Shown: one piece after another, positions 22,441-64,000 of the stretch
How the letters are laid out: each line of letters opens with the position of its first letter
How positions within the stretch are numbered: the first letter of the stretch is position 1
Translations under genes and position numbers: made by a program
DNA from: Macrostomum hystrix
Taxonomy: Eukaryota; Animalia; Platyhelminthes
Direction: 5' to 3'
Assembly (NCBI GenBank): GCA_950097015.1
Contig: CATNEN010000029.1
Coordinates: 558,001-622,000 of the forward strand
DNA length: 64,000 nt
The notes under the pieces: model-generated
Told to the model about the DNA's origin: nothing
The model's input: the letters and a program-made list of their open reading frames with translations, nothing else
The model's database searches: none

Positions 22441-22560
22441 GCTATGGTGTGAAATGGAGTGATGTAGCACATTATTGTTTTTTCATGTTAATATTGATAT
22501 AGTATGGTTTAATATTTGTCTATTGTTTTAAAAAATTCTCCTATAATGCAATTGTTGCAG

Positions 22561-23053: not shown

Positions 23054-23590
23054 GTATAAGAGTTAGAAATAACATCGAAGATCGGGACTTAAAGAACTTT
23101 AAAACCAGATGATATAGAATAAGAAAAGGACAATGAAAGTAGAAAATACCGCAATTCATCAAATGCCAAAAGAGACGCTAAAAAAACTAACCCCCCAGCC
23201 AAGAACAATGGAGACCCACCCACAGGTCAAACCGGCGCCGGCCAAAACGAGTCTGAGCGGCACGCGGCCGAGGGCGAGGGTACAAGAGGAAAACGTGCTG
23301 GAGAAGAGGGGAGAAGACAAAGAAGGCGCATGACAACCGAGCGTGGCGGTCAGACAGAAAAGAGACGAGAAGGGAGAGATTAATCAATATTAAAAGTGAA
23401 TAGAAATACCACCATCCCAACGCGATCTAACGCAACCAATGTAATAACCAGGCCCTACCTAAGAAAGGAGTTGTCTTGCATGGCAACCTACTAGATTAAT
23501 AGAAAATATGTCAAATTCAAGGGCTGCGACCCAACATAACTCAAATCAAAGCAAGTGTACTGTAACTAACCACAACATTACCCATCCCAC

Positions 23591-25267: not shown

Positions 25268-26909
25268 TCAGCCTTTGGGTAGAAGGGTACATGTATGATA
25301 TTTGTAGGTCAGTAGGTCACTGCTCATGTCCTGCGGTGAAGGCACCGTAGTTGCGATGGGAGCTTGTACAACATTCGCTGCTGCAGTACAATCTGCCATT
25401 GCTTCCTCTCGCATGAGTGGCTCGCCTATCAAAATCTGCTGATGCGTATTAATGTTCAGCATCAGCTCAAGCAAAACTCGCACCCTTAATTCCAAAGAGC
25501 AGTCACGGTTGCCAAACACCACCAACGAGAGCGCCTCAAACAAGCAATTTCCATGTCCATGTCTAATGTCGAATCTTGCTCTCTTGCTATTTCTGCACGC
25601 ACTACACTTGCCGATTTTTCTACACAGCGGGCACCGATTTCTTTTCTACGTTTTGAGCGCAGTTGCCGGGGTATTGGGCGCGAGTGAGTGGTTGCAGCGG
25701 TGATGGTAACTAATTTCCAGATCTGCCGGCTTGCATCACACTCGATTCTATGCTTTCCGGAACACTGGTTGCAGTAGATGAATGCGACGATGCTGCCATT
25801 CGCGCGAACGTACTTTGTTTTGACACAAAGTGCACAGTTGAAAGCGTCAGCGAAGAGCGGCAAGACAACGTTTACCCAGTTTTCCTGCAGGTGATTGTCA
25901 CTAGTGAGCAAATCGTTAGCATCTTGCCGAGGCAGCCGACGCTCAACCACTGGGTTGCTGAAATGTGTGAGGAATATAGTTTCGATGCATAAGGCAAATA
26001 ATGTTGCCTCAAGACTCACATAAGAAGACAATACGAAATACCATTGCAACAATCATTCATCCGAGTCAGCTCCACACGACACTATTATTCGTATTTGATA
26101 GAGCAAGTACTGTAATTACCTGGAATTCCGTAGGCGCAGACTCTCGCACTTAATGGCTTCGTCATGACGACGAAGAAATGTGTACAGCTGCTTCCGAGAG
26201 CTCTCTCCGCTTTCGCCTTGAATAAAGTGTGCTACACTTGCTAAACCAGTATTGCCGCTTCTCCAGCTATCCTTAAGTATGGCCTCAAAGGTGACATCCA
26301 GGTTATCTAAAGCGTCGACCACTCTCTCAACTGAGAGAGGCGCCGCCTGAAATTTCAAATGTGCTGGTAAGCGAAAAACAAAGAAAAATAGTATAAAATA
26401 CTGGTAACTCTTATACCAGTAACAAAAGCTGATAGCAGTGCGACGGTTTCTTCCGATCCGGTATTTATAATTCTATCGATATCTTTGCGTAGCTTTTTTC
26501 GTTCCCTTTGTAGCAAAAGCTGTGGCTGAATGTCGCCTCCCTGCACCATGTCCATCACCTGTTGATGCTGCAGGGCTTCCAACCAAGCACGGCCGTTGAC
26601 ACGATATTCATGTCGAATGTCATTTCCATGCATTCCATGCAGAAGACCAACTCGAGACGGTAGAACTTTAAGCTGGACTACAGAAACTCCGTCATGGCCA
26701 TATCGACGATATGAGTTTTCACCAACCCCTCTGATACGCAAATCAGTGCTAGAATACAACTGTGTACAAGAGCACAGACGCTTGCAAGCTTGTGCCAAGG
26801 AAACACCCTCTGGCACTGTTAGCAGAACAGCAGCTGGTGCAGCAGGACAGTTTAGTGGCGAGGCCACTTCAGGCAAAGCCCCATCAGGGGCCGAAGTCAA
26901 GAACCGGAG
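25268..26909 (-). pseudogene. Internally deleted element gene: NOF/MULE-like N-terminal region plus out-of-frame OTU/vertnin-like protease remnant
   Basis: Exons 26909-26417, 26363-26120 and 25957 onward join with matching phases (1, then 2) at canonical GT/AG sites. Motif RQLRSKRRKEIG...SASVVRAE is present. A second frame gives GHGNCLFEALSLVVFGN..LELRVRVLLELMLN and AANVVQAPIATTVP. No DDE domain is seen. Confidence 0.6.
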
Positions 26910-31502: not shown

Positions 31503-34500
31503 ATGGCTGACTCCGATCCTAACGATAATGACAATGGCGGTGTGCCTTACGATCCGCAAGACGATGAGGAGGACATCGACGATCTGGATGACGCCAATGT
31601 TGCCGACCTAGACGATGATGAAAACGAAGGCGTGGTGGCGGATGTGAATGAGGAGGCTCAGTCTGAGGATGAGAATGAACTCATCGTTTTGGACCCGGAT
31701 CATGTGAGTGTTTTGGAAATTTTTGCATAGAAATCACAGCAGATATTTTTTCACCTAAATTATTTAAGGTATTTAAGGTTCGTTGCACTAATTGCATAGC
31801 TTATTAGTGCAGCGAAATGCTTGAACATATGTACTAGAAAGTGCACTTCATATAAGACAGCCTTAATCTAAAAAATTGCCAAAATTCCAGCCTCTGATGG
31901 AACGGTTCCAAGAACGACTGAAGAACCTTCTGGAGAGACAGGTGGAACGACTACAGGTGTCAAAGCGCGAACAGGTGAGTAAAGACAGACTTTGCTTAAC
32001 TAGCTTTTAAATAAGTTATTGAAGTGACGCAATGGTGAAAAATTAAATTAATTTTAGGACGAAACGTTGAAGAAGAAGCGACAGCAGCATCTGGAACTGG
32101 GCAACGAGCTGTACAATTTGCAGCAGGAGTTAGCCAAGTAGGTTTGGAATTGTCGTCAGTTCACGTAGAACAAAATTTTCGTTTCGACTTAAAACAAAAA
32201 AGAGATACATTTACGACAAGATTCTATAACTGTTAAAGATAATAAGGATTCATAACTGTCCAAAGAAAAATGCTGATAGTTAGGTTTATTAATTGATAAA
32301 TAACCAAACCAAACCAAAAGGGTCGGTGGCAGAGCGGTTATCGCGTTTGCCTCTCGCACCTCGGTCCCTAAGTTCGATTCCACAGAGAGGCCACATTCAT
32401 TTGGGGCGCAGCCGCGGAGAGAAGGCTTGGGGGCTTGTCGTGCAATTTACGCTCTTGAGGGCCAACCATTAAGGCACAGTGAAGTGTACACTGCCTGATG
32501 ATGAGAAAGTCAGGCCAGATGTACACACCTGTGTGAGCGTATGCCTGCGTACAGTATATGTGTGCGTGTGTGCTCAGGCGTCAGCGAAATGGGCAGAATT
32601 GCCTCCTCGCTGGCTGCGGGTCTAGTGTCACCAAATGATGTGCCATTGCCCGCAGCCCTCCTGCAATTATTATTATTATTATTATAAACCAAACCAAACC
32701 AAACTCTAACCACGCCAATTATTTCCACGGAAAATATAATCCGTCTCGTCCCTCCCTTAGAGCCCAGATGCACATCGAGAAGGCGCACGACGACTACACT
32801 GAGGCCAAGCGGGGCCGTCAGCAGAAGGAGATGACCCTGGACGACACGCGGCGCATGTTCAAGGAGATGACGAACGCGTACAACCAGGAGAAGCGAAAGG
32901 AGGCCGACCTGCGCCAGGAGGTCGACAATCTGGCCCTGCGTCTGTTCTACATGCGCAACGCGCGAGAAGATGTCCTCGGCGACATCGCCGTTATGAAGCG
33001 CGCCGCCGAGAAGGCCGACGGCGATCTAGCCAAGGCTGAGGACGCCAAGATGCGGCAGGACCTGTTGGTTGACCGCCTGGTTGAGCAGACCGACCGTCTG
33101 CGCGAGGACATTGCTCTGTACGACGCCCAGGTCGCCGCTCAAGGTGACGAGATCAAGGCGGCCAAGGAGGGCCTCGCCGATGCTCAGTCAGAGATCCAGA
33201 CCATCGCGGTGGAGCGCAAGCAGCTGATGTCACAGTGGAACAGCAGCCTGATTGGACTGACCCGCAGGAACGAAGCACATTCCACCATGCTGGAGGCTCT
33301 GAATCAGCGCAACGAGCAGATTCGGAGTCTCGGCACGGAGGCCGAGGCCTACGCGAAGTCAATCTCCAAAGAGCAGGAGCAGAACGAGAAGCTGACACTG
33401 ATCTTGAACAAGACCGAAAAAGACTTTGACACGGTGCGTTCAGTTGGATTAGAATGGGTTTGATAACTCGGCTGCCTCATCCCGGAAGTAAATGTTTATC
33501 CACAAACCCAACCCCACTGCAGGTGAAGCGGCAGCTGGTGCAATCTCGCAGCAAGCACGACCAGCTGAAGCAAGAGTTCTCGCTGAAGACTCGCCAGCTG
33601 CACGAGACTGAGACACACCTTGAAAGAGCTAACGTTCAGATCCGCGAGCGTCGGCAAGAGTTGGACGCCCTCCGAAAGCAGATCGAGCGCGAGTACCAGG
33701 AGAAGGTGCGCCTCACGGACGAGATCACTGAGCAGATTCGCAGCCGATTGACAATGAAGAAGGCGGCCGAGTATACTCAGAAACTCACCGGGAAGGTGCG
33801 AGATCGAACTCGCGAAGTTGAAACCCAGATTGCCCTGGTCGAAAACGACATCTCCAAAGACCAGCTAGAGGCAGCTCATGTGCGAGCTCGCCTGCGGCAC
33901 AACCAGACCATGGCCGAATCGCTGGACAAGGAGATCTTAGCCAAGAACATCGTCATCAACAAGTCTGAGCAGGATCAGGCGCGCAACAACATCGACATCG
34001 AGCGCAAGCAGGGCGAGATCGATCAGCACAACAAGCGGCTCGAGCAGCTGATCGCCTCGGCCGGAGGCGTCGAACTTGGACCGCTGGAGATCACCATCAA
34101 CTCGCTGGGCAAGTCCATCGCGGCCAAGCAGGAGGAGATCGCCGGCCTGGAGCAGATGTGGCTGCGGGAGCAGCACGAGCTGGTGAAGATTGTCAACGAG
34201 CGGAGCGAGCTGGGCGCCACCGTCAACCGGCTGAAGAAGCAGCTGATGATCCTGGGCCAGAAGAAGTTGCGCATCGAGGGCGACATCGAGCGGGAGCAGA
34301 AGGAGAAGCTGACCGTCGAGCGCTCGCTGAACCATCTCCAGACGGACATGCAGCGCCTGAACGGCCTCATCTACCGGGAGACGGACGCGGCCGACCAGTT
34401 GCGCAAGCACAATGCCCTCCTTGAGACCGACTTTGTTCGCGCTCTCAAAGAAGAAGAGAAAGTCAGCCTGCAGCTCCGCGAGAAGCTGGAGCTGCTCAAG

Positions 34501-35709
34501 GAGGAGAAGAACCGCCTGCTGTCCTCGCTGATCGACGCCGAGCAGCGCATCATGCTGTGGGAGAAGAAGATTCAGCTGGCCCAGGAGACTCGCGCGGCTG
34601 TGGACTCGGACGTTGGCCAGGCCGAGATCAAGGCGATGCGCTCTGAGATTCACCGCATGGAGGTCCGGCTCGGCCAGCTGATGCGCCAGCAGGAGCAGCT
34701 CATCCAGGAGATGGAGAAGTCGGTCAGCAGGCGGGACACGATCGCCACGCGCGGCGAGGCCCAGGCGCGCGCCAAGGTCAAGGTCGTCACCAAGGGCGCC
34801 ATGCAAAGGGAGCTGAACGAGCTCAGAAAGAGAATTAAACAGACCATCAAGGTGAGCTAATTTTGAAACTTTTGAGACTTTTGAGACTTTGGGACTTTTA
34901 AGTTGAATTAATTACTTACTTTGCAGACCACAAACGAATGCGACGAAGACATTGAGGACCTGCGTCAGAAGCAGTCGCTGCTTGAAGGCGAAATTAGCGA
35001 GCGGAACGAGCGCTGCAACCAGCTGCAACAGGAGGCCGACCGGCTCAATGACACCCTGGCCAGCCTCACCGACATGAAACAGATGGTGAGGCCGCCAGGC
35101 TGGAATACCTGGGAGCAAGATAGAAGTTCCTGGAATCAATGATGGATTAAGGAAGATATTATTGGGATCAATAACGGATTAAGGAAGATTTTACTGGGAT
35201 CAATCATGTATTAAGGAAGATTTTACTGGGATCAATGATGGATTAAGGAAGATTTTACTGGGATCCATGACGGATTAAGGAAGATATTACTGAGAGTCTG
35301 AGATCAATCATAGATTAAGAAAGATATTACTGAGATCAATCATTGATTAAGGAAGATATTTCTGGGATCAATCATAGATTAAGGAAGATATTATTGGGAT
35401 CCATGATGGATTCATAAGCCGCTCCTGTGTGATTTCTGCAACGATGCCACCCACCCCCTCCGCCATCAGCAAATCTTTGATCTCCAGTCGCGCCAGCAGA
35501 CGGCCCGCTACTACCAGCAAGTTCGCGAAGGCAAGTACAAGCCGCTGTACAAGGAGACCGCCCGCCTAGACGAAGAACGCCAGAAACAGCAGGAGAGGAC
35601 CCAGGCGCTCAGCCTGGTGATCGAGCGAGTGACCCGCGACCATCCGCAGGTGCTTCGTGCCATCGGACCCTGTCGCAGTATGATCAACACTCGGCTGGGC
35701 TTTGCCTGA
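31503..35709 (+). CDS. CCDC40: Coiled-coil domain-containing protein 40 (axonemal 96-nm ruler subunit), 7 exons, 921 aa
   Basis: Exons 31503-31703, 31891-31974, 32058-32137, 32761-33433, 33523-34851, 34927-35085 and 35470-35709 join in phase (2,766 nt). Acidic N-terminus, LIVLDPDH|PLM motif, long coiled coil, QRIMLWEKKIQLAQETR and a C-terminal VREGKY...HPQ segment typical of CCDC40. Confidence 0.93.
32319..32686 (+). mobile_element. Full-length tRNA-derived SINE in CCDC40 intron 3
   Basis: A box TGGCAGAGCGG (32327-32337), B box GTTCGATTC (32372-32380), (ATT)n tail (32666-32685), flanking direct repeat AACCAAACCAAACCAAA at 32302-32318 and 32687-32703. Confidence 0.85.
35130..35410. repeat. 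About 32-bp minisatellite in CCDC40 intron 6
   Basis: GGGATCAATGATGGATTAAGGAAGATTTTACT-like units. Confidence 0.85.
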
Positions 35710-45765: not shown

Positions 45766-46729
45766 TTCTATCGCTTAAATTTCTCAGGCCTCTCTAAGAT
45801 AATTGTTTTTTTCAACGGAAGAAAGCGAAAAGTTTCAGCAATCAAGTCTCCTTGATCTATTCGCCAGTCTCGCGAATGATTGAGTTCGCAGCTGGCCAAT
45901 CGACGAGATTAGCTGGTCGAAATGAAGGATTTGCTGTAACCTTTTATCTATCCGCTGGAAGTGAACTAATATAAGTGAGTGAATGAGGAATAGAGAAACG
46001 GAGAGACACAGAGCAGTGTGGGCCACCGAGTCCAACTGGAAATCTGAGAATAATTTTATTCTCTTAGCTTTTCGAACTGGGCAAAGTTTTATACTAGGGC
46101 CTAGCTGGTGTGTGTGCCAGCACCAACTCACTAAGCATTCTAAACTGGGTCCACACCCTTCCCAAACAACACTATCCATGTGTTTCAGAGCACCGCAGCG
46201 TGCCTTGCACACATGCGCACAAATATAGACCCCATTGTTGCTCTTGTTCATGTATACTGCCCACTATACGAGCTAGATAGGATCCACTATGATATGTCTG
46301 ACCCTATGCTCCCATTGCTCCAGTCGTCTCTGAACTCCCAGTGTTTTTCAGTGGCTGCAAGTAAAACATATGATTGATTGCTGATATTCGTTGAAAAACA
46401 ATTTCCTATTTCTTTTTCTCTCCTGCTTGCTGCATTGAAGTACAGAAGTACATACGACCGTAGACAACATCATGTACTTTTTAGAAAATGTAAAGCTACC
46501 CATGCATGGAGTACTTTCACTTTTTCAACTTTATTGACCATGGATTAATTCGAATTTCATTTAAAAAACTGTCTATTAATTAACTGCGCGTTATCATATA
46601 ATGCTATGATGGCTTGCTTGTAAATCATATATAAAACTTGAAATAAATCTTCAATACATGTCATTTACAGCAGTTGCTCTAGTATGGCACTTTCTTGAAC
46701 TGCCATCTGAATTTCACAATGACCTACTT

Positions 46730-48610
46730 CCTGATCAACTAATGAATACTTCCTGACCCCAACTAATGACTAATCTCTGACAAATTAATGACTACTCCCT
46801 GACCAACTAATGAGTACTCTCTGACTAACTAATGACTACCTTCTGACCAACAAATCACTTCTCTCTGACTAACTAATGTCTACTCTCTGACTAACTAATG
46901 ACTACTCTCTGACTAACTAATGACTACTCTCTGACTAACTAATGACTACCTTCTGACCAACAAATCACTTCTCTCTGACTAACTAATGACTACCTTCTGA
47001 CCAACAAATCACTTCTCTCTGACTAACTAATGACTACCTTCTGACCAACAAATCACTTCTCTCTGACTAACTAATGTCTACTCTCTGACTAACTAATGAC
47101 TACTCTCTGACTAACAAATGACTACTCTCTGACTAACTAATGTCTACTCTCTGACTAACTAATGACTACTCTCTGACTAACTAATGACTACTCTCTGACT
47201 AACTAATGTCTAATCTCTGACTAACTAATGATTACTCTCTGACTAACTAATGTCTAATCTCTGACGAACTAATGACTACTCTCTGACTAACTAATGACTA
47301 CTCTCTGACTAACTAATGTCTACTCTCTGACTAACTAATGACTACTCTCTGACTAACTAATGTCTACTCTCTGACTAACTAATGTCTAATCTCTGACTAA
47401 CTAATCACTACTCTCTGACTAACTAATGTCTACTTTCTGACTAACTAATCACTGCTCTCTGACTAACTAATGACTACTCTCTGACTAACTAATGTCTACT
47501 CTCTGACTAACTAATGACTACTCTCTGACTAACTAATGTCTACTTTCTGACTAACTAATCACTACTCTCTGACTAACTAATCACTACTCTCTGACTAACT
47601 AATCACTACTCTCTGACTAACTAATGTCTACTCTCTGACTAACTAATGACTACTCTCTGACTAACTAATGTCTACTTTCTGACTAACTAATCACTACTCT
47701 CTGACTAACTAATCACTGCTCTCTGACTAACTAATGACTACTCTCTGACTAACTAATCACTACTCTCTGACTAACTAATGACTACTCTCTGACTAACTAA
47801 ACACTGCTCTCTGACTAACTAATCACTACTCTCTGACTAACTAATCACTACTCTCTGACTAACTAATCACTACTCTCTGACTAACTAATGTCTACTCTCT
47901 GACTAACTAATGTCTACTCTCTGACTAACTAATCACTTCTCTCTGACTAACTAATGTCTACTCTCTGACTAACTAATGTCTACTCTCTGACTAACTAATC
48001 ACTATTCTCTGACTAACTAATCACTACTCTCTGACTAACTAATTACTACTCTCTGACTAACTAATCACTACTCTCTGACTAACAAATGACTACTCTCTGA
48101 CTAACTAATGTCTACTCTCTGACTAACTAATGACTACTCTCTGACTAACTAATCACTACTCTCTGACTAACTAATGACTACTCTCTGACTAACTAATCAC
48201 TGCTCTCTGACTAACTAATGACTACTCTCTGACTAACAAATGACTACTCTCTGACTAACTAATGACTACTCTCTGACTAACAAATGACTACTCTCTGACT
48301 AACAAATGACTACTCTCTGACTAACTAATGACTACTCTCTGACTAACTAATGACTACTCTCTGACTAACAAATGACTACTCTCTGACTAACTAATGACTA
48401 CTCTCTGACTAACTAATGACTACTCTCTGACTAATTAATGACTACTCTCTGACTAACTAATGACTACTCTCTGACTAACAAATGACTACTCTCTGACTAA
48501 CTAATGACTACTCTCTGACTAACAAATGACTACTCTCTGACTAACAAATGACTACTCTCTGACTAACAAATGACTACTCTCTGACTAATTAATGACTACT
48601 TCCTGACCCA
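46730..48610. repeat. 22-bp satellite (GACTACTCTCTGACTAACTAAT)n, about 85 copies
   Basis: Direct periodicity with variant units; degenerate edges. Confidence 0.96.
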
Positions 48611-49274
48611 ACTAAGGAGCACTCTCTGAAATTTTGGGAAAGGCAACAAGATTGACTAGAAAACAACAAAATCCAGTATCGAAAATAAGAGGAAACAGAT
48701 AGAATTGCGTAATTACACAGTTGCACAGATTGATCTACTAATAGATGCCACAACAATCAGTATGAAAGTGCCTATGTTTATCGTCAAGCCACCTTCAATT
48801 TTAGAATCGCAAGCAAAGTTAATATGAATCCCAGGTCCATATAAACTCCATTTAAAGACACAAATTTGACGCCCTTTGAATAATATGTTTCTGCGCTTGC
48901 GCGGCACAACAGATAGGTCTCATAAAGTACTCACTAGCACCCTCACGGTGCCAAATTGACTCCGGGTATTGGCAGACACCTGAGCTATTGTCGTGTGCTG
49001 AGAGCACGACGACGATAGGCCAGCAGCATTTGCTGGAGCTCTGACTAGTGATACAGCGTACAAATGCTGCTGCTGCTGCTGCTGCTGCTTTAGATTTTTA
49101 TAGTGAAGGTGTTGCTTTGCTTTAGATATTTTGTTTTCATAGAAAAATTTGTGTCGCTTTCTCGTAATATATATCATGTTACATTTTTTGAAGAAATTTA
49201 TTTGTACAGTATATGACAACACTGAAGAGTTACTGTCTGTAGAATCCCTGTTTGTAGAGTTATTTCAGGAAAAT

Positions 49275-52084: not shown

Positions 52085-52415
52085 TGTAGAGAGTTGTAAA
52101 ATACGTTTTTACTTAACGCGCTACTTAAAGTAATGTCACAAGGAAACCTTAGCTATAATGTTTAATCTATTTTTAGGAATGAGTCATGCGCTATTTTTAG
52201 AAACAAGTCATGTGACATGAAATCGGAGAACTGGTTCTCGACAGCTGTATTTACTTGAAGCAAACATGACTCATCGGTTTCTGCACCTGTATTTACACAA
52301 TATTCCAAATATGGTAATGTTCACCTGAAAACCCCCCAAAACGCAGCTGATCAAACAAGTCTGACCTCACTGTGCAAACATGTATGCCCAATGTAAACAC
52401 CCGGTAGTAGAACCG

Positions 52416-53849
52416 TCAGTCGCTTACGCTGGCCTCATCTGGGCCAGTGCCATGAGCATCCAGAAAAACCTGGAGGCGCTTTATAGGGTGCAGGGCAGAG
52501 CCTGTCGCATGACGCTGGGCGCCCCACCCTCCACTCCCTTTGAAGGCATGAACGCTTTCCTCAACGCTACACCCATTGACATTTTTGTTAAGGGGGAAGC
52601 GGCAAAGTCCACCCGTCGTCTCCTTGATGCGGGTGTATCCTTCCAGAATTCGCGAGCCTTCTCGAAGCGCTCCCTTCTGCCCCACTCTGACCTCTGCCTG
52701 AAAACTCTGGGCGAGTGCGGAGGGCTCACCATCCTTTCGGACGGGGCCCCGGCCACTTTACTCCGGAGCCACAGGTACAAAGTCAGCATCTTCCCTCGTA
52801 ATGAGGTAAAGGACTGCTGGGATGACCCCGCAGTCCACTGTTACACTGACGGCTCCCTGATGAACGGTAAATCGGGATTCGGGGTGTGCGTCGCCTCGGG
52901 TGGCGAGGTCCTCTGGACCCACTCCCAACACTGTGGCAAGAGCTCAAGCGTTTTCCAAAACGAAATGCTCGCCATCAGCTTCTGTGCGGCTGAGCTGCGC
53001 CAGAGGCAGCTGGCTGGTCGGAGGATCTTTTTTCACTCCGACAGTCAAGCAGCCCTCAAGGCCCTCAGTCGCTGCACCTCTCGCTCCAGAACCACCTTGG
53101 ACTGCAACAACCAGTTAAACGGTTTGGCGCAGTCTAACAAGGTGGAGCTGATGTGGATCCCTGGGCACGCCGGGCTCACAGGGAATGAGATGGCGGACGA
53201 GCTTGCAAAGGCTGGAGCAGCCAGCTCCCTGATGGGCCCGGGCCCGGAATCCCCGATCCCCGCCTCCGTTGTCAACTCCAGCATCAACCACTGGATGGAG
53301 ACCCAGCACCGGAGGAGGTGGTCCAGCACCCTGAACTGTCGCCAGTCCAGGGCTGCGGTGCCAACCCCCTCTAGTAACCTGCGTAAGGCCTTACTCAGGC
53401 TAAACCGCAGAGACCTGAGAGCAGTCACCATGGCCCTTTCGGGACATGGCTGCTTCACCAGACACCGCTACCTCCAAGGCCACGTGCCTGAGGAAACGTG
53501 TCCTTTCTGCTGCTCCGGCCGTGAAAACGCCGAGCATTTCATTTGCCACTGCCCGGCCTTCACCCGGGCTAGGCTAAAACACCTCGGGCCGGCACCGACT
53601 CTTGCCGAAGCCTGCTCGCCCGAGAACATCCCTCAGCTCGCCCACTTCCTCCGGGATACCGGCCGAGCTGATTTCTTCCCAGCCTATGGCGAGGAAGATC
53701 GCGCGGCGGAACCGACCGACGGACCACCCTGAGCGGCACCGCCTCGCTGGAGGCCGTCTGGCTGCCAGGGGTTAGCGATATGGGCGGCAACAGCCGCCTC
53801 CTCGCTGCGTCCGTCATGGAGGCCCCCTGCCGCTAAGTCAAGTAAGTCA
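52416..53849 (+). mobile_element. 5'-truncated non-LTR retrotransposon with RNase H (I-group, Loa/Lian-like) inside the 5' LTR
   Basis: Absent from the 3' LTR and flanked by AGAACCG at 52409-52415 and 53850-53856. The ORF has the post-RT segment, RNase H ([40 protein letters not shown]) and a CPFC..HFICHC zinc motif. Tail is TAAGTCAAG x2. Confidence 0.92.
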
Positions 53850-53876
53850 AGAACCGGTTTTTCCCCAAAATTTTAC

Positions 53877-53884
53877 TATAAATA
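53877..53884 (+). promoter_or_regulatory. Candidate LTR TATA box
   Basis: TATAAATA inside the LTR, also present in the 3' LTR; function inferred from position only. Confidence 0.45.
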
Positions 53885-54574
53885 CAAGCGAAAATCCGAG
53901 CTAAAAATTCAGACTCGGAGCGGTCCACCGGACTTCAAAACACCTTACGAAGAAGAGGACTCATCTCTGAGGGAAAGACAAGTGGTAAGCGCTTTATTAG
54001 ACAGAGTTATTTATTGCTAGCAATAGTTGTTGAATTGAACTAAGTTTACGAGAGCCACATATCGTCGATACATTTGAGAAAGGCCTCCTTGTTTCCTAGG
54101 ATACATTCCTAGAGGATTATTGATTGATTTGAATTGAGTTATCCGTTATCTTTCGGAGGTAACGAAGAAGACGCCCTTCAGGAGGACCTACTAGAGATAT
54201 ACAAGAGAGATTTCAATTGTTCACTAGGGCGCACGTTTCTATTGTGAATTCCGAGCTCGAGGAAACCGAAAAGTAATCTGATTCGCTCTCGTCATTTATT
54301 GGCCAACAGACAAACTCAAGCAGCTACCAGGAAGACAAAGAAGACAAGACTACAAAGACTCAAGAAGCAACAGAACCAATACTTCACGGTCGACCAGCAC
54401 AAGAAGAAGAACCGCCGGCTATCGAAAACCAAAGACTACAAACAACTCACTATCAAGGAAGAAGAAGAAACTGCAGTAAGTGTCACGTGACTGTTATAAA
54501 TTCCTAGGCAATTGTTCCCCATTGTCTAGAAGTGGGAGTTTCGTGTGTCTGATCAACACGCAAAACTCTTCAAC

Positions 54575-54585
54575 TGGTGATCTCG
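54575..54585 (+). other. Candidate primer-binding site (tRNA-Trp-like with two G-U pairs)
   Basis: TGGTGATCTCG two nt after the inferred LTR end; compare the canonical Trp PBS TGGTGACCCCG. Confidence 0.5.
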
Positions 54586-55108
54586 CCCAGGCCCTGCAAT
54601 CAAGCCCAGGCCGAGATACAAAACCATTTTTTGCGGTACCACTTTCGAATTGTTTTAACATAAAAAAGAAAAAAAAAAATTTTTTGCAACTTATTAATTT
54701 TGCTTTTGATTTAAAATAATCCACCGTTTCATAAAAATTTTGTTGCGTCATACCTCTGAAAAAATTTTGCTGTCCCTACCGGATATTGTTGCACATAAGC
54801 CACACGCGTCACTTCGCTCTATTGTTTGCACATCTGGGAATCGCGCGACTGAACTCACCGGCTCACATTTCAATAACCCCTTTTCAGCGTTAAAAGCGGC
54901 ACACGTTCCCTGCTTTGTATAAATTTTTCTCCCTTGTCCTGAGTAAATAATTCCTCTGTGTAAACCATTTTTCAATTTGCTGATACACACGCACACGCAC
55001 ACACACACACACTTTTTATTCACACTAAATCTTGTCAGAGAAGTCAATCTGGACGAACCCTTGAACATCGATCCAGAACTTGAATTATTTCCGTTCCCAG
55101 TTGCGAAT

Positions 55109-58100
55109 ATGGCACGAAGAAACTATCAGGTCCATCGTGACATTAAGGAAACGGTCGGAATGTATACAATGGATAAAGATTTCAACACATTCATTGATCA
55201 CTTTGATTTGGTCTCACGCGAATATGGATTACAGAATGCAGAGAAAGCACTCCTCCTACCTCCACTGTTACAAGGAACAGCTCGAGAAATCTATGGAAAA
55301 TTGACAGCTGCAGTACAACAAGATTATCAAGCTCTAGTTACCCAACTGAGAGCACAATTCGCACGGTGTGGAACAAACAGATCGGTACTCCTTCATAAAC
55401 TTCATAATCGAAAAATGAGTCCCACTGAGAGTTTTCTCACCTTTGTTGATGACATCCGTAAGATCATCAAAGCATTACATCAGCCTCCACCATTGGATCA
55501 AGGAGCGCAACCTATAGGACCTGCCGAATCAGCTGCACGAGAAAGACAACGTCTTGAAGACCGGGAACAAAGTTTAATACTTCATGTGATTAACAACGCA
55601 CAGCCTACTTTGCGAGATAGACTGCTGAGAGAAACTATTAACACAGAGGAACAATTGCTCCGTTGTGGAATGCAATGGGAAGCTAGCGCACCTCTTATGA
55701 CTACTCATAATAGTGACACGACACAACTAGCAGAACAATTAAGCAAACTCATGCAGCAACACCAAACTTCTGCTATTGTACCACAACAGCAGAGATATTC
55801 CTATCCACAACCACAACAGAGATACTTGCACACATCAACTTGTTACACCTGTGGAAGGATCGGTCATTATGCTAGAGACTGCAGATCACGTGGCAACCCA
55901 CGTTCATACAATGACAATAGACAGACCAATTGTACTCATCCTCCAAGACAGCCTTCAAACCGTAATTGGACAAATAGTCGACAACAAGATAGCAGACCAT
56001 CTAATGCCATCGTACCTTATCGTCAACAAAGAAATCCTCCACCTCCAAGACAACCAACGCAAGTCCGTCGACAATACACTCAAGCTATTGAGCCTGAATA
56101 CACTCAAACTATTGAACCAAAGTTCAAGATTGAAGATCTTATGCCAGACTTTTCTGTCAATGTTCTTGATGAACTTGAGAAACAAAAGAAGGAGCAAGAA
56201 ATCAATGACCTTCATCTGGACAACGATGGTGCAGCCTATATTACTATAATCGAAAGCGACCATTCGAAAGAGCCGCCCATGCCACAAAAGGAAACAGAGG
56301 ATACAGAAGAAAACAATTTTTACTACAACAATGAGTCAACACAGGAAATACAGAACGACAACACAAGCAACGACAGCAGCTGCATAATGGGTTCATTGTT
56401 TGAAGAATTATCGATTCCCTCGCCAAAAGAAAGTGTTGCCTTCAACACCTGTCAACACATTGAACGAAAACAATTACAACAACAAATCAAAGGATTATTC
56501 AAAATTCCAACGATGAGTGATCTTTCAAAAATTCTGCAAAACAAAGAAGGCATAGATGAATTGTCCACATCCACAGAAAGGAATAATGAGGACCACAGTG
56601 CGAAAAATTCACACAACACGTCTGAAGAAAACATCAGCATGCTACAAATTTTAGTCGATGACATCGACTTGACAGAGACACCGCCTTCGACACCCAAGTA
56701 CAAACCTGATCCCGAATACGAAAACATAACCCATGTCAATTCATCTGAAGGACAGAATGGACACGATAAAGCAGTGAATACCGAATCATACTACTCGAAG
56801 CACGATAGATCTTCTCAGACTAAAAGTGACTACAATACGTCGATGGAAAATGATGATGATCATATCTATGATGAACCAACAACGTGGATCGACATGAGAA
56901 CGGATACTACAAGTACCGTACTGCAAACTCTCAATACACCATTAACATTCAATATGAAACAACCAACCTGGTATAACCAACAAACCAGACCATCAGGATG
57001 CAACAACCCATGGCACTTTTCTATGCGCCTTACTCCACCAATTGGAGAGACAGAAGACCAACGATATTCAATAAACACCAATAAACCGACACCACCAACC
57101 AAAGTGAAGAAAAAGAAACGGCACATACTGATAAGATTGTTGTTTTCAGCCATCGTGATGTTGCTTCTCCCGACAGTTGTACCATCTTCAGTGCCCATGA
57201 TTTGCCCTACTGATGCCAACATCCAACCAGTCATCTACAAAATACCAACGGAAATCAAGTGCAGTTACTTTAAAACTAATCAAACAAAACCTATTCCATT
57301 AACGATCGATGTCTACAAAGCAAACACAAAGAAACATAGACAATATGGTATTATCTGTTTCCGAGATAAACATGAACTAGAAAAGGTTTGGTACATCCAA
57401 TGGAATCGCATCCGATTCTGGCAAACAGCACTGCCTGTCACACAAGAAGAATGCCTCCAGTGGAACCAAACATTATTTTCTAAAGATGGAGAACTTCATG
57501 CCGATGAGAAACTTGGAAACTCTCAACTCTTCAGGACCAAGAACAGTGCGAACGGTAGATATGTCCATTGGAACGAATACATATGGCCACGTTACACCAC
57601 GACAAACAGTTACTTGATCCGGAAAGTCTTGTTTTACCACAATCCATTTGAAAACATGGAATCTCTACAATTATCAATGGAAGATTGCAAGTACAACACA
57701 GGGTTCTCCGAAACAGCAAAACTCTGGAACGAAGCAGTATGGCAAGTACCGCTGGCTCCAACATATCATCAAAATTACAAATGGCAAATTGAACATCGAC
57801 ACAGCCCATACTATGAGATTACAGAATACCAACGACAGTACTTCGTTGCATGGAAAGTTGAACCGAATATTGATTGTAAATTCCAGAAGTACCATACAAT
57901 AAAAGGAAGTCTACTGTCAAATACCTTCCTTGCGAGTACGTCGGATTTTGCCCTAACTTTTCCAAAAAAAGCCAAGTATCTCCAAATTAACTGCAAGGAG
58001 AACTCTAAAAAACTTCTAGTGTCTGAACAAGAGATACCGCTCGAATTACGTGATATGGATGAGGATACCTTTATGAGACTGGTCAATGGTACTTATTCAA

Positions 58101-61100
58101 CAAGAACCAACACAGCTCGGAAAAAGAGAGAACTACAAAGACCATCAATGGTTTCTGCACGACTACTAGCGGCAAAACTCGCAGCAATGGAACATAACCT
58201 ACATAAAGAACTAAACTACTTGCACAAATCACTGATCCAACTGACTTGTAGAATGCACGAAACTGCACTTAACTATGCACGACAAAACTATTATGTCAAT
58301 CCAACGTCTACATTCAGAAAAATCACAGGGATTCAAGATGCTTTAGCTATCCCCATCTCTGGCCATCTGTTGATTTACAAATGTGTGCCACTGCATCATT
58401 TTAATATCTTGCCATCAAACACATCAACTACGTGCTACGATAAACCCAGAATCGAAGCTTACTACAATGGGAAACGAATTCAAGGATTTCTAGATACTGT
58501 GCACAATATAATTGTTGGAACTGCAATCCCGAGACCCTGCACTGACGCAGCCAACTATTTCAACATTAATAATAAACTACACAAGGTCTCAACAACTGGG
58601 CACATTACAAACATCACTGGTATGCAAGCTATTATCGACGAAACATACGAATTATCGGACCTACAGCTCAAGATAAATAAGACCACCTATAAACCATTTG
58701 GTGACATCAAACTTGACGAAATCACACCAGGATGGACAATTAATGATTTTCTTCAAGTTTTTATTGCCCAACGACAGATGATGAAAAAGCTCTTTACCCA
58801 ACACAACCAACAGGACAAAGAACAATCCTTTTCGACAGGATTCATCATACATAACGCAATAGGATCCTTTTGGTCGAATAGCCTTCTCGATTTACTCCAA
58901 GGAAAAGGAAGTTACTATCAGGGATTCATCTTCTCCAGTGCATGCATTGTATGGATTCACCTTGCACTAATGATCTTTATCACAGTAGTACGATGTGTAG
59001 CACGAGCCTATCCAGCAAAACAACGGATTTTCCAAATTGACAAACAACAAGAAACTACTACACTCAACGAAAAAATTGAAGAAACTCTACTACAAGATCA
59101 AAGAAAACAATTATTGCCAACAGCACCAGAACCAGAAGCATCAAATATTTACCCAAAAATTGAAATCAGAACAGCGAGACCACCGCCGAAATCTCCTCCT
59201 CTACCAACGGATCCAAAATGGCCAGCAAATTACATTTGCACCTTGCAAGCCAATATGGGTAGAGCGATGGCTCAAGTATTTATAAACAACATGCCCAGTA
59301 AAGCACTTCTCGACTCAGGAAGTTCAATCACAGTCATCACAAAAAGACTCTACGACAAATTGCAACTTCATATGCGACCTTCTTCAATCGCTGTCGCTGG
59401 AGCCGGAGGACATGCACTTAATATCCTAGGACAAGTGAATATATCACTTAAACTTGCAAACAAGCAACTTCTGGTACAAGCATTTGTTATTGACCATCTT
59501 CCAAGCCAAGATGTTATTATTGGAATCGACACATTTCGGCAAATGAATCTACCATTAACATTTGATTTTAACAAACAAACATTCAAACTGGACAATGTGG
59601 AACATCCTTTAGTCAGCCAAGTTCACCTTCAACCAAAAGTACATATTAAACAAGATGTCTTCATACAGCCGGAAAGTACATGTTGGGTTAAAGCATATCT
59701 CGCCAATCATGACGATGTCGAAGAAGCTATGATATTTGAACCAAGAAAGAAGATCCTCACAACAAAAGAAGTTTTAATACCAACGGCTCTAGTCCTTATC
59801 ACAAAGGAAAGAAACATCCCAGTACAAATTATAAATCCAAATCAACATCCAGTAAAAATTTATGCAGGAACATGCATGGGACATCTCAACACACAAGCTT
59901 CGGTAATGCTCATCCAACCAGACACAACAACAAAAATGTCTAAACAAAAATTCCTACAACAAATTGATCTTTCTCAAAGTCCAATCACTGAAGGACAAAA
60001 AACACAAGTTAAAGATCTATTGTGGAAGTATAACGACGTCTTCTGTCATCACGATTACGACATCGGATGTGCTCGAGATATCAAGCAAAAAATTGAACTG
60101 CTACCTCATCAAGAACCAATCCAATGTAAACCATATCCAGTCGCTAAACACCTACAGCAACACTTCGATGAAATCATAGAAAAAATGCTTAAAGCAGGAA
60201 TCATAAAACGTACCGTCTCAGCTTATTCTTCACCTTGCCTTCTTGTCGAAAAGAAAGAAACAAACGAAAGACGACTCGTCTGTGATTTCCGAGTCCTAAA
60301 TAAGTACATTCCCACCGATCAACAAAGTCTACCAAAAATCTCAGAACTGCTAGCACGACTCAATACGGCGACACTCTTCACCGTATTTGACCTACGACAT
60401 GGATTCTGGCAAATCGAACTTGAAGAAGAATCAAAACAATACACTGCCTTCAAAACTTACAAAGGAGAAGTTTTCGCGTATCAAAGAAGTCCAATGGGAA
60501 TCTCCAACTCACCAGCAACAATGAGCCGTCTTACAGCCTATATGCTAGCCGGATGTACAAATCTGCTTCACTATGTTGATGATATTCTTGCCTTTGGAAA
60601 TAACTTTGAACAACTAGTAAAAGTCATGGAACAAGCTCTCTTCTTACTCCGACAACAAGGTCTAAAACTGCAACCAACAAAATGTAAATTCTGCAGAGAT
60701 TCGGTCCGATATCTTGGACATCACGTCTCATCACGAGGCATATCACCTGACCCAAATAACGTCGACAAGGTCAAGAAGTTCCCGAAACCTACGTCAATTA
60801 CCAAACTGCAGTCATTCCTTGGACTAGCACAATATTTCCGAAAATTCCTACCTAACTTTGCACAAACGGCTAAACCATTGTACGAACTACTAAAAATTCC
60901 AAAGTGGAAAGAAGACAACTGGAAAGCGGAACAACAGGAAAGTTTCGATAGAATCAAACAACAACTAACTAGTGATGCTCTTCTCAAACACCCGAACTTC
61001 CACAAACCTTTTATCATAGAAACAGACGCATCAGGAAGCGGATTAGGAGCCGTACTACTTCAGGAAATGGAACCAAAGAAAGAAAAACCGATTGCTTACA

Positions 61101-61648
61101 TCAGCAGAGCGCTAAGACCAAACGAAACGAAATGGTCAGCCACTGAACGAGAACTACTAGCTGTTCTATTTGCTCTTCGACAATTCCATTACTACATCTA
61201 TGGATCACCACTGCCAACTATCATTCGCACAGATCATGCACCGCTGACTCACGTTGTTAAAACAAAAGGACAGACGAACAATAGACTCATCCGAATGGTC
61301 CTCAAAATACAGGACTACAACTTTCACCTGGTTTACAAACCAGGGCCAATGAATAAAGCCGCTGATGCACTGTCCAGAACATACGAGATCAATGCAGTTC
61401 ATCCAATTCCAACCATAAAAGACTTGTTGAAAGCACAACAAGACGATTCCTTTTACAAAGCCATACAAGAAGATACAGAAGAAACGGAAAATGAACTTAC
61501 AAAAATCGAAAAACAATTCTTACGAAAACACAAAAATAGTCTAGTTTTCAGAGAACTCGCACTCTACTGGGTGTACAACAATATTCCGCGACTGTACCCT
61601 ACACATTCCGTTCAGCGATCCTACACGAACTCCATGATAGTCCATTAG
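55109..61648 (+). CDS. Gag-Env-Pol polyprotein (Gag, Zn knuckle, acidic linker, glycoprotein, protease, RT, RNase H)
   Basis: Single stop-free frame. CCHC CYTCGRIGHYARDC 55841-55882; hydrophobic segment from 57122; RKKR 58118-58129; TM 58922-about 58998; LLDSGS (D at 59312); YVDD 60572; IIETDAS (D at 61025). Confidence 0.93.
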   Translation: MARRNYQVHRDIKETVGMYTMDKDFNTFIDHFDLVSREYGLQNAEKALLLPPLLQGTAREIYGKLTAAVQQDYQALVTQLRAQFARCGTNRSVLLHKLHNRKMSPTESFLTFVDDIRKIIKALHQPPPLDQGAQPIGPAESAARERQRLEDREQSLILHVINNAQPTLRDRLLRETINTEEQLLRCGMQWEASAPLMTTHNSDTTQLAEQLSKLMQQHQTSAIVPQQQRYSYPQPQQRYLHTSTCYTCGRIGHYARDCRSRGNPRSYNDNRQTNCTHPPRQPSNRNWTNSRQQDSRPSNAIVPYRQQRNPPPPRQPTQVRRQYTQAIEPEYTQTIEPKFKIEDLMPDFSVNVLDELEKQKKEQEINDLHLDNDGAAYITIIESDHSKEPPMPQKETEDTEENNFYYNNESTQEIQNDNTSNDSSCIMGSLFEELSIPSPKESVAFNTCQHIERKQLQQQIKGLFKIPTMSDLSKILQNKEGIDELSTSTERNNEDHSAKNSHNTSEENISMLQILVDDIDLTETPPSTPKYKPDPEYENITHVNSSEGQNGHDKAVNTESYYSKHDRSSQTKSDYNTSMENDDDHIYDEPTTWIDMRTDTTSTVLQTLNTPLTFNMKQPTWYNQQTRPSGCNNPWHFSMRLTPPIGETEDQRYSINTNKPTPPTKVKKKKRHILIRLLFSAIVMLLLPTVVPSSVPMICPTDANIQPVIYKIPTEIKCSYFKTNQTKPIPLTIDVYKANTKKHRQYGIICFRDKHELEKVWYIQWNRIRFWQTALPVTQEECLQWNQTLFSKDGELHADEKLGNSQLFRTKNSANGRYVHWNEYIWPRYTTTNSYLIRKVLFYHNPFENMESLQLSMEDCKYNTGFSETAKLWNEAVWQVPLAPTYHQNYKWQIEHRHSPYYEITEYQRQYFVAWKVEPNIDCKFQKYHTIKGSLLSNTFLASTSDFALTFPKKAKYLQINCKENSKKLLVSEQEIPLELRDMDEDTFMRLVNGTYSTRTNTARKKRELQRPSMVSARLLAAKLAAMEHNLHKELNYLHKSLIQLTCRMHETALNYARQNYYVNPTSTFRKITGIQDALAIPISGHLLIYKCVPLHHFNILPSNTSTTCYDKPRIEAYYNGKRIQGFLDTVHNIIVGTAIPRPCTDAANYFNINNKLHKVSTTGHITNITGMQAIIDETYELSDLQLKINKTTYKPFGDIKLDEITPGWTINDFLQVFIAQRQMMKKLFTQHNQQDKEQSFSTGFIIHNAIGSFWSNSLLDLLQGKGSYYQGFIFSSACIVWIHLALMIFITVVRCVARAYPAKQRIFQIDKQQETTTLNEKIEETLLQDQRKQLLPTAPEPEASNIYPKIEIRTARPPPKSPPLPTDPKWPANYICTLQANMGRAMAQVFINNMPSKALLDSGSSITVITKRLYDKLQLHMRPSSIAVAGAGGHALNILGQVNISLKLANKQLLVQAFVIDHLPSQDVIIGIDTFRQMNLPLTFDFNKQTFKLDNVEHPLVSQVHLQPKVHIKQDVFIQPESTCWVKAYLANHDDVEEAMIFEPRKKILTTKEVLIPTALVLITKERNIPVQIINPNQHPVKIYAGTCMGHLNTQASVMLIQPDTTTKMSKQKFLQQIDLSQSPITEGQKTQVKDLLWKYNDVFCHHDYDIGCARDIKQKIELLPHQEPIQCKPYPVAKHLQQHFDEIIEKMLKAGIIKRTVSAYSSPCLLVEKKETNERRLVCDFRVLNKYIPTDQQSLPKISELLARLNTATLFTVFDLRHGFWQIELEEESKQYTAFKTYKGEVFAYQRSPMGISNSPATMSRLTAYMLAGCTNLLHYVDDILAFGNNFEQLVKVMEQALFLLRQQGLKLQPTKCKFCRDSVRYLGHHVSSRGISPDPNNVDKVKKFPKPTSITKLQSFLGLAQYFRKFLPNFAQTAKPLYELLKIPKWKEDNWKAEQQESFDRIKQQLTSDALLKHPNFHKPFIIETDASGSGLGAVLLQEMEPKKEKPIAYISRALRPNETKWSATERELLAVLFALRQFHYYIYGSPLPTIIRTDHAPLTHVVKTKGQTNNRLIRMVLKIQDYNFHLVYKPGPMNKAADALSRTYEINAVHPIPTIKDLLKAQQDDSFYKAIQEDTEETENELTKIEKQFLRKHKNSLVFRELALYWVYNNIPRLYPTHSVQRSYTNSMIVH
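57122..59000 (+). other. Env-like class III (herpesvirus gB-like) glycoprotein domain within the polyprotein
   Basis: Signal/anchor segment, Cys-rich ectodomain with about 6 N-x-S/T sequons, furin-type RKKR, gB-like NP...G..L.I.KC and CY.KP.....G.L...N.I......PC motifs, C-terminal TM. Confidence 0.8.
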
Positions 61649-62784
61649 CAGGACACTTATCCGCCAAGAAAACAATCCAGAGAGTCGCCCAGTTCTATTT
61701 TTGGCCAACAATGAATTTAGACATTCGCAAGTACTGCACACAATGTCACTCATGTGCTTCAACAAAAATCGGAAGACGACAAAAACCTGAATTCCAATCA
61801 GTGCCGAAGACAACTACATGGGACACAGTGTCAATTGACATTACCGGACCACTACCACCGGCTCGACAACACTCTATCGACTACAACTACATTCTTACAG
61901 CCTTGGATGTTTTTTCGAAATTCGCCGTTGCCATTCCGATACCTGACATCACAGCGACAACAGTTGCAATGGCCTTCTATAATGAAATTATCTGCAAATT
62001 CGGAACTCCTAAGACGCTAACATCTGACAATGGTACACAGTTCACATCGCAATTATTTCAACAGGCCGCCAAACTACTGAATATTCAACAAATATTCACT
62101 TCGACATATAATCCAAAAGCAAACCTCGTCGAAAGATTTCACAGAAATCTACATGAAATGCTGACACACTTTGTTTACAAACAACCTGAAGATTGGATTA
62201 TTTACATACAATCCGTGACAATGGCCTACAATAGCGCAGTTCATCGTTCAACAGAGAACACACCATTCTTTCTGATGTTCTCTCGAGACTTTCAACCACC
62301 GAATCTATTAGTTCAGAAATTACTGCCATCTCAATATGTTGACACGCCGACGACGCTACAAAAGTTCACTTCTCAATTACACCTAGCATGGCAAATTGCA
62401 AAACATAATCTCGACAACCAATCTACCGTACCTACAACAAGTAATCATGCTTCTACCTTACAAGTAGGAGATATCGTCTACCTACACTACCCGGCACAGC
62501 ATACGCACAAGCATGCTTTCAAATACAAAGGACCTTTCCGTGTAACAGGACTGATATCCGCGACAACAGCACGCCTTGCAAATATCCAGGATCCACATCA
62601 ACCTCAGTTCTACGTTCACATTCAACGTTTAAAACGCATCACTAACGACACTACATTCCTTCCAACGTTACAGAATCCAGACCACACAAAAACAACAAAC
62701 AAGCACATTGCAACAGCACATGCCGAGACACAAACCACAAACACACCACCAAATACTCATACGTATAACCTACGCCCGCGTTAA
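61594..62784 (+). CDS. Integrase (HHCC, DDE, GPF), out of frame with upstream pol
   Basis: The frame VPYTFRSAILHELHDSPLAGH...CTQCHSC, VSIDITGP, TSDNGTQF, LVERFHR, YKGPFRV is shifted by -1 relative to pol at about 61592-61594. Confidence 0.9.
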   Translation, partial: VPYTFRSAILHELHDSPLAGHLSAKKTIQRVAQFYFWPTMNLDIRKYCTQCHSCASTKIGRRQKPEFQSVPKTTTWDTVSIDITGPLPPARQHSIDYNYILTALDVFSKFAVAIPIPDITATTVAMAFYNEIICKFGTPKTLTSDNGTQFTSQLFQQAAKLLNIQQIFTSTYNPKANLVERFHRNLHEMLTHFVYKQPEDWIIYIQSVTMAYNSAVHRSTENTPFFLMFSRDFQPPNLLVQKLLPSQYVDTPTTLQKFTSQLHLAWQIAKHNLDNQSTVPTTSNHASTLQVGDIVYLHYPAQHTHKHAFKYKGPFRVTGLISATTARLANIQDPHQPQFYVHIQRLKRITNDTTFLPTLQNPDHTKTTNKHIATAHAETQTTNTPPNTHTYNLRPR

Positions 62785-62915
62785 ATTACTCGTTTATTGT
62801 TACCCGTGTAGTGACCGGGATTAAGAATAGCACTACAGCTTCTCAAGCTTGTCGTAAAAGGCGACTAAAACCTCTGTTCTCTGCAAACGCCCACACAATT
62901 TTCGCGAACACTACC

Positions 62916-63134
62916 ATGGACTGTCCTGTCTGTCTTGAAGAATTCTCATGTAAACTACCATGTATATGTGTCAATAAACACCATGTTTGCGGTTCTTGCT
63001 TAAGCCTCGCACACTACAAAAAACCATTAAAAAACTGTCCTTTGTGCCGTGGAAATCTCCGCCAATGTATGATATGTAACTCATGGCGAACTGTACAATA
63101 CTGTCAATACGTGATGTTATCTTATTATTGTTAA
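62916..63134 (+). CDS. Stand-alone C3HC4 RING-finger ORF (72 aa) between integrase and 3' LTR
   Basis: ACCATGG Kozak context. C-x2-C-x11-C-x3-H-x2-C-x2-C-x12-C-x2-C (CPVC...CVNKHHVCGSC...CPLC) plus an extra CMIC. Confidence 0.75.
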   Translation: MDCPVCLEEFSCKLPCICVNKHHVCGSCLSLAHYKKPLKNCPLCRGNLRQCMICNSWRTVQYCQYVMLSYYC

Positions 63135-63186
63135 GCTAAGTCATTTTCTTTTCCTCTCAATAATAAATTCGGGACGAATTTTTCGT

Positions 63187-63201
63187 AAAAAAGGGAGATA
63201 T
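63187..63201 (+). other. Polypurine tract
   Basis: AAAAAAGGGAGATAT immediately before the 3' LTR TG. Confidence 0.85.
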
Positions 63202-64000
63202 TGTAGAGAGTTGTAAAATACGTTTTTACTTAACGCGCTACTTAAAGTAATGTCACAAGGAAACCTTAGCTATAATGTTTAATCTATTTTTAGGAATGAG
63301 TCATGCGCTATTTTTAGAAACAAGTCATGTGACATGAAATCGGAGAACTGGTTCTCGACAGCTGTATTTACTTGAAGCAAACATGACTCATCGGTTTCTG
63401 CACCTGTATTTACACAATATTCCAAATATGGTAATGTTCACCTGAAAACCCCCCAAAACGCAGCTGATCAAACAAGTCTGACCTCACTGTGCAAACATGT
63501 ATGCCCAATGTAAACACCCGGTAGTAGAACCGGTTTTTCCCCAAAATTTTACTATAAATACAAGCGAAAATCCGAGCTAAAAATTCAGACTCGGAGCGGT
63601 CCACCGGACTTCAAAACACCTTACGAAGAAGAGGACTCATCTCTGAGGGAAAGACAAGTGGTAAGCGCTTTATTAGACAGAGTTATTTATTGCTAGCAAT
63701 AGTTGTTGAATTGAACTAAGTTTACGAGAGCCACATATCGTCGATACATTTGAGAAAGGCCTCCTTGTTTCCTAGGATACATTCCTAGAGGATTATTGAT
63801 TGATTTGAATTGAGTTATCCGTTATCTTTCGGAGGTAACGAAGAAGACGCCCTTCAGGAGGACCTACTAGAGATATACAAGAGAGATTTCAATTGTTCAC
63901 TAGGGCGCACGTTTCTATTGTGAATTCCGAGCTCGAGGAAACCGAAAAGTAATCTGATTCGCTCTCGTCATTTATTGGCCAACAGACAAACTCAAGCAGC
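63202..64000 (+). repeat. 3' LTR (first 799 bp; remainder outside the window)
   Basis: No differences from the 5' LTR were seen by eye once the LINE is removed. Confidence 0.95.

Follow-up and report, generated by a model that had tools for sequence, protein, structure and literature searches.

Neither LTR retrotransposons of the env-bearing type nor the idea that such an element can carry an accessory reading frame is new. PMC13524379, in its main text and the supplements available to us, describes GAG-ENV-POL elements with an ENV of the HSV/gB type in Platyhelminthes, Nematoda and Bryozoa, including a Macrostomum lignano member that is listed with 16 copies and has the same 12-nt primer-binding site as the element described here. 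The six flatworm env sequences in supplement 3 of that source are all from Schmidtea, two short env motifs of our element do not occur in its available supplements, and its main text, from which the words 'RING', 'zinc finger' and 'accessory' are absent, does not describe an extra RING gene. Accessory genes of invertebrate LTR retrotransposons are known from rotifers, where they include esterases and nucleases, and from the C. elegans element Cer1, which has CERV. The ORF3s of bdelloid rotifer elements are typically separate units with spliced messages, according to the accessible part of PMC5408684, in whose text neither 'RING' nor 'ubiquitin' occurs. A literature search that extended to few subscription papers returned no RING gene in an LTR retrotransposon, and a tandem-RING accessory gene of an env-bearing retrotransposon is most likely undescribed so far in the literature found.

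Here we report such a candidate in a 64,000-nt stretch of Macrostomum hystrix DNA (the window), within an LTR-bounded element that lies, with all of its features given below, on the + strand. On balance, we favour the view that the short RING-encoding ORF in this young Gag-Env-Pol Ty3/gypsy element is the likely 5' remnant of the element's own tandem-RING gene, the full product of which is predicted to be a ubiquitin ligase acting on host proteins. A broader proposal, which we advance tentatively and regard as possible rather than probable, is that this env-bearing flatworm LTR lineage has long carried a putative catalytic tandem-RING ligase that would be made from a spliced subgenomic RNA and would destroy host silencing or restriction proteins. 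Elsewhere, the window contains a large inverted duplication (19457-23065 and 26405-29839, 94-98.6% identical) with a repeated reading frame that we take to be PDZ-like, GC-rich coiled-coil exons at 32639-34860 that presumably belong to a host gene resembling the axonemal CCDC39/CCDC40 type, and a minisatellite array at 46651-48700 with about 90 units of 22 bp. Many further minisatellites are found throughout the window.

The element has the LTRs, primer-binding site, polypurine tract and protease-RT-RNase H-integrase order of a Ty3/gypsy errantivirus. Its 5' LTR (52085-54572; TG...CA; ~1,047 nt without a LINE insert that splits it) ends in CA directly before the primer-binding site (54575-54586), the reverse complement of which equals the 12-nt site of Platyhelminthes_Rhabditophora_Mlig_errantivirus_2. 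Judged from the LTR coordinates listed in the available part of PMC13524379, that element has an internal region of ~8,860 nt and an LTR of ~864 nt, against 8,629 nt and ~1,047 nt here. The polypurine tract lies at 63187-63198 and the 3' LTR at 63202-64000, where the window end cuts it; by LTR comparison it would end near 64248. The two LTRs are 100% identical across the comparable 806 nt (331 + 475 nt), so the insertion is, by this measure, very young. A 5'-truncated LINE fragment (52416-53849; RNase H and zf-RVT; Pfam RNase_H E=1e-14), flanked by a 7-bp target duplication, sits in the 5' LTR upstream of a TATA-like box. Since it interrupts an LTR that is still identical to its partner, the LINE appears to have been active even more recently than the element. 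In run X1, the contig depth of the LINE is far above that of the element.

A single polyprotein ORF (55109-61648) encodes Gag with a CCHC knuckle, Env, protease, RT and RNase H, and is 64% identical over 1,505 aligned residues to the M. lignano protein P0009. The common frame of Gag, Env and Pol would place Pol behind a membrane-spanning Env. The reading frame breaks near 61.6 kb, and the integrase (61711-62784; H2C2 remnant and rve core, Pfam rve E=3.7e-17; 71% identical to P0009) lies in another frame. Because contigs from two of the four compared runs differ from the window at this point, the break may belong to this copy alone or come from the assembly. The sole named relatives of the element are M. 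lignano polyproteins, at 64-71% identity, which by themselves point to a Macrostomum-type flatworm as the likely host. These retrovirus-related polyproteins (ALD16272.1, PAA64473.1) likewise have Env and Pol in one frame, and the sister element, 64% identical over Env-protease-RT-RNase H and 71% over integrase, belongs to another family or another species. A low-complexity, acidic and Thr/Asn-rich stretch of about 400 residues with no Pfam match (55900-57120) separates the Gag zinc knuckle from Env, whose first hydrophobic segment follows it.

The Env region (57122-58993) likely encodes a class III (gB/rhabdovirus G-like) fusion glycoprotein. It has an R-x-K-R site, the basic site at aa 1004, and two flanking hydrophobic segments that start at aa 672 and aa 1272. 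Its Atlas feature score was 0.96, with 210/256 features shared with Monjiviricetes_fusion/Rhabdo_glycop clusters and a recognition value of 1537, below the mark of 2300; gB clusters came behind, at 0.92-0.93. Pfam gave no env match in the polyprotein, and the structure model of Env has a pLDDT of 29.9. On the Atlas score and the hydrophobic segments, a likely class III fusogen lies between gag and pol, as expected of a GAG-ENV-POL element. The gag-env-pol order named in the earlier note stands, with the Env region between the Gag knuckle and protease-RT. The available text of PMC13524379 had already reported this order for flatworms, and its errantiviruses share with our element both the Ty3/gypsy domain order and a class III-like env between gag and pol.

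The accessory ORF (62916-63134; ATG at 62916, stop at 63132-63134) encodes 72 amino acids and lies between the integrase stop at 62784 and the purine tract. The earlier note had described it as an ORF with an ACCATGG start and textbook C3HC4 spacing in the gap before the polypurine tract, and all three points are borne out. The C3HC4 RING pattern is C-x2-C-x(9-39)-C-x(1-3)-H-x(2-3)-C-x2-C-x(4-48)-C-x2-C. The first RING of the ORF (RING1) fits this eight-ligand pattern, with C-x2-C-x11-C-x3-H-x2-C-x2-C-x12-C-x2-C at residues 3-44, a spacing of 2,11,3,2,2,12,2, and no other C3HC4 match occurs in any of the six frames across the 64-kb window. With 20,000 simulated gaps of 417 nt for each of three Markov models, two of which were trained on the gap itself, 0, 1 and 0 C3HC4 matches arose, and at 0-1 matches per model a chance ORF is ruled out. 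An in-frame upstream extension from the integrase is likewise excluded, by an in-frame stop at 62766. Profile scores are weak: Pfam zf-RING_2 reached E=0.011 on the ORF (16.5 bits against a cut-off of 27.3), the best relative scored 26.6 against a cut-off of 27 (P0012), and none of five sequences, the ORF and four relatives, reached the cut-off of zf-RING_2, zf-C3HC4, zf-C3HC4_3 or Sina_RING.

A full HMMER search against 1.84 billion representatives returned 10 matches at E<=0.001. The best was P0011 (206 aa, E=6.5e-17), and two more of the 10, P0012 (130 aa) and P0017 (214 aa), are relatives of the same kind; P0021 was added from the P0017 cluster. The relatives fall into three clusters with sizes of 130-229 aa; the four named here are all proteins from Logan contigs, of 1.1-2.1 kb, which presumably also derive from retroelements. 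The alignment excluded the other seven matches as different or spurious: the aphid Sina-like P0018; P0015, P0019 and P0020, in which a RING is part of another architecture; the repetitive P0013 and P0014, where no RING was recognized; and P0016. All four aligned relatives contain two adjacent C3HC4 units, against one in the 72-aa ORF. Identity to P0011 is 62% over 63 residues, running from RING1 into the second unit (RING2), where it ends. In each of three relatives, 11/11 zinc ligands are identical to those of the ORF, against 28/52, 13/51 and 10/52 of the other positions (54%, 25% and 19%). This pattern fits selection on zinc binding, in a comparison biased by the fact that the relatives were found by similarity. 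Together with the C3HC4 motif and the place within an LTR-bounded unit, the ligands kept in distant relatives support the claim, made before, of an element-borne RING gene.

The word-index search with the 72-aa ORF gave no match, and that with the five-sequence profile found only three of its own members. Pattern matches to the family in viral contigs (12) and in metagenome contigs (20) yielded no confirmed locus, the protein collection contained no exact match for the three window proteins, and neither HMMER nor the profile word-index search returned a named M. lignano protein as a RING relative, though the sister element is found in M. lignano. That the relatives are known from Logan contigs alone is a point in favour of a quite different origin, in which a RING fragment of a host or DNA virus was captured by chance and is carried by the element as a useless passenger. 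The Atlas search with P0011 points the same way, in that the nearest clusters are mostly viral RING proteins, all with scores <0.9, and the element replicated although its RING gene is shortened in this copy (see below). However, none of the 10 HMMER matches is a named host or viral protein of tandem-RING architecture; among named RING proteins, an aphid Sina-like ligase comes nearest, at E=2.4e-4. Moreover, the 62% identity to P0011 is near the 64-71% identity between the polyproteins of the element and its M. lignano sister, and similar values are expected of a RING gene that diverges with its element. We therefore consider a chance passenger very improbable, and prefer a gene that belongs to the element.

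A complete member of the tandem-RING family would have two full RINGs side by side and a helical C-terminal part behind them; the 72-aa ORF, with RING1 and three of the eight RING2 ligands, is a shortened homologue. Its conserved part (62916-63104) holds the complete RING1 (codons 3-44) and RING2 ligands 1-3 (codons 51, 54 and 63). In tblastn comparisons, homology to three of the four relatives ends at 63104 (codon 63), in the middle of RING2, and P0012 aligns to 63095. The later part of the relatives has no tblastn match elsewhere in the window apart from self-matches to RING1. The remaining eight codons and the stop (63108-63134) have no local match to the relatives and are likely of 3' non-coding origin. 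A possible poly(A) signal, AATAAA, follows at 63162-63167.

Where the protein homology ends, contigs from other runs also depart from the window sequence. Eight runs from two studies contain the region, none of them on record as RNA, and we compared the contigs of four (X1, X2, X3 and X6), a comparison that rests on the best 40 of 375 variants, 15 of 25 joints and 24 of 329 loose ends. Sequence of the RING region is present in all four. Among the loose ends and joints listed, an X3 contig of 1,138 nt tracks the window over 62503-63107 and continues with 507 unlike letters, and X3 and X6 contigs meet the window at 63098, with at least 255 unlike letters before that point. The likely break point is thus 63098-63107, as the contig tables and the end of protein homology at 63104 indicate. 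In the main X1 contig, 62779-63035 differs by two other letters and one gap; a one-base gap is listed at 62867, upstream of the ATG. The X3 contig over the RING region also begins with 27 letters unlike the window (62476-62503), for which a divergent copy, a splice junction or a spliced leader is possible.

Since homology ends and the contigs of other runs diverge at one spot, the simplest interpretation is that the gene is shortened here: its 3' part is likely missing from this copy, the last eight codons of the ORF deriving from non-coding sequence, and the unlike letters in the other copies presumably encode the remainder of RING2. Most likely, the 72-aa product represents what is left of the 5' end of a longer double-RING gene and not an intact single-RING gene. 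The ORF is real, but its earlier description as intact probably does not hold, given where its homology to the tandem-RING relatives stops. Some features would suit a functional short form, in which the single-RING protein is itself the selected product of a sub-lineage: RING1 is complete, the start context is good, AATAAA lies downstream, the identical LTRs speak for recent integration, and an X2 contig carries the window form over 62614-63127, so that the short form is probably not an assembly error alone. Yet that contig, with 7 gap letters, extends only 20 letters beyond 63107, below our 31-letter bridging rule. The ORF stops within RING2 with three ligands unpaired, its last nine residues have no match in any relative, and the last base of its stop codon is another letter throughout the depth of X3 and X6 and in 356.5 of the 508.2 depth of X1, though nowhere in X2. 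We judge a selected short form distinctly unlikely, and the shortened remnant remains our preferred reading. In practical terms, the proper object of study is the natural full-length double-RING genes, and not the 72-aa ORF.

The family profile resembles solved RING domains. Against PDB sequences it gave 23 matches at E<=0.01, all to cellular RING-domain proteins, with TRIM21 the best (1.3e-5) and the RINGs of TRIM5, TRIM32, BRCA1 and RING1B among the others. A RING adopts a cross-brace fold around two zinc ions. The AlphaFold model of P0011 is confident for residues 1-110, which span both fingers (block pLDDT 64-86), and poor for a helical tail. Foldseek with this model found no PDB match at E<=0.001, though RING proteins lead the list; the top entries, RING1B-BMI1 fusions at E 7.6e-3 and 1.4e-2, are not significant. 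A wide fold search returned mostly low-confidence helices (best Z 5.0), and the BFVD fold search gave one viral match at E<=0.001 (best 9.3e-4).

In RING ligases, the Arg after the last RING Cys helps to prime E2-ubiquitin. RING1 ends in Pro-x-Cys-Arg in all five sequences, the 72-aa ORF and its four relatives, and RING2 has Gly or Lys in place of that Arg in all four relatives. Because the Arg is kept in RING1 and replaced in RING2, we propose an active RING1, which would bind and prime E2-ubiquitin, and a RING2 that would serve as its structural partner. The helical C-terminal part would choose the substrate, for which a host silencing or restriction factor is the most plausible candidate. 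Without the rest of RING2 and the C-terminal part, the 72-aa product of the present copy would keep just the portion that binds E2, and is likely inactive or, at best, an untargeted E2 binder.

How the gene would be expressed can be proposed from splice signals. A GT..AG intron (53985-54309; GTAAG donor, CAG acceptor) lies in the LTR, and the corresponding joint, 53983->54309, is seen in X2, X3 and X6 contigs and is absent from those of X1, which suggests that these three runs represent RNA and that splicing uses the donor at 53984. This donor could also serve as the 5' splice site of a subgenomic RING RNA, and a pyrimidine-rich tract with TAG at 62786-62811 is a candidate acceptor, recognized by its letters alone. 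Splicing from 53984 to the AG at 62811 would yield such an RNA, on which the RING ATG at 62916 would be the first start, in the manner of the spliced rotifer ORF3s (PMC5408684), as there is no ATG from the TATA-like box (53877) to the donor nor in 62785-62915. As stand-alone evidence, the ATG-free stretch 62785-62915 was rejected, because 762 of 5,000 shuffles likewise had no ATG. The earlier note had proposed to look for a spliced transcript that uses the AG at 62811; such a transcript did not find support, since no joint at this AG is among the best 15 of 25 and the X3 contig crosses it unbroken. We nevertheless think it likely that the full tandem-RING gene is expressed from a spliced RNA. 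As a separate observation, the leader (53900-55108, 1,209 nt) has 0 ATGs on the + strand and 15 on the minus strand; shuffles had a mean of 19.3 and none of 5,000 was ATG-free, a pattern suggestive of selection for scanning as far as the Gag start.

The splice donor also bears on whether the full-length protein is a ligase at all. An element-borne double zinc finger could do its work in RNA export, assembly or regulation, with no ubiquitin transferred and with the present copy still shortened. Precedent comes from CERV of Cer1, a spliced cysteine-loop accessory protein that is required for nuclear export of the genomic RNA, as described in the available part of PMC10309623. A donor in use in the LTR means that our element meets the same export problem as Cer1. 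The fold neighbours include Lassa Z, with an rmsd of 1.6 A across 48 columns, at a non-significant E=0.095. Arenavirus Z is myristoylated, whereas a Met-Gly start occurs in 0/5 sequences of the ORF and its relatives, which argues against a myristoylated matrix role. That all 23 PDB matches of the profile are cellular RING-domain proteins, named E3 ligases included, and that the Pro-x-Cys-Arg end is shared by all five sequences, also speaks for a ligase, and we regard a non-catalytic role as unlikely.

If the ligase reading is true, these elements are complex retrovirus-like agents with an E3 accessory gene, and the substrate would point to a host factor that limits such elements in the stem or germ cells of flatworms. 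This could be tested in a regenerating, transgenic-ready animal.

Compared with known systems, the RING gene resembles in position the rotifer ORF3s, which, in the accessible part of PMC5408684, are also family-specific extra genes downstream of pol; these differ in encoding GDSL esterases, DEDDy exonucleases, env-like or coiled-coil proteins. CERV is likewise a cysteine-rich accessory protein of a Ty3/gypsy element and is made by splicing, but it has sequence in common with Gag, carries a possible C4 loop in place of a C3HC4 RING, and serves genomic RNA export, according to the available part of PMC10309623. Among cellular proteins, Sina/SIAH- and TRIM-type RINGs have three residues between the third Cys and the His, as here; P0012, P0017 and P0021 show weak Sina_RING matches, and TRIM21 and TRIM5 are the best PDB matches of the profile. 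All of these lie below curated cut-offs, and no Sina substrate-binding, B-box or coiled-coil family match accompanies them. Viral RING E3 ligases, which fill the BFVD list (ICP0 and the RINGs of giant viruses, baculoviruses and Ostreid herpesvirus 1), have the RING fold in common with this family and no homology beyond it: TM-scores by query are <=0.28 among the matches listed, and the tandem RING-RING with a helical tail is unmatched at full length. The likeness to ICP0 drawn in the earlier note accordingly extends to the shared fold and no further, as ICP0 ranks 46 at E=0.11, over 64 columns of its 772 aa, and neither homology outside the RING nor a protein of ~770 aa was found for the ORF and its relatives (72-229 aa). 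Lentiviral accessory proteins borrow host ligases, and herpesviruses and other large DNA viruses encode RINGs of their own. If our reading is true, a retroelement with its own E3 would use the strategy of the DNA viruses, and not that of an adaptor for a host ligase.
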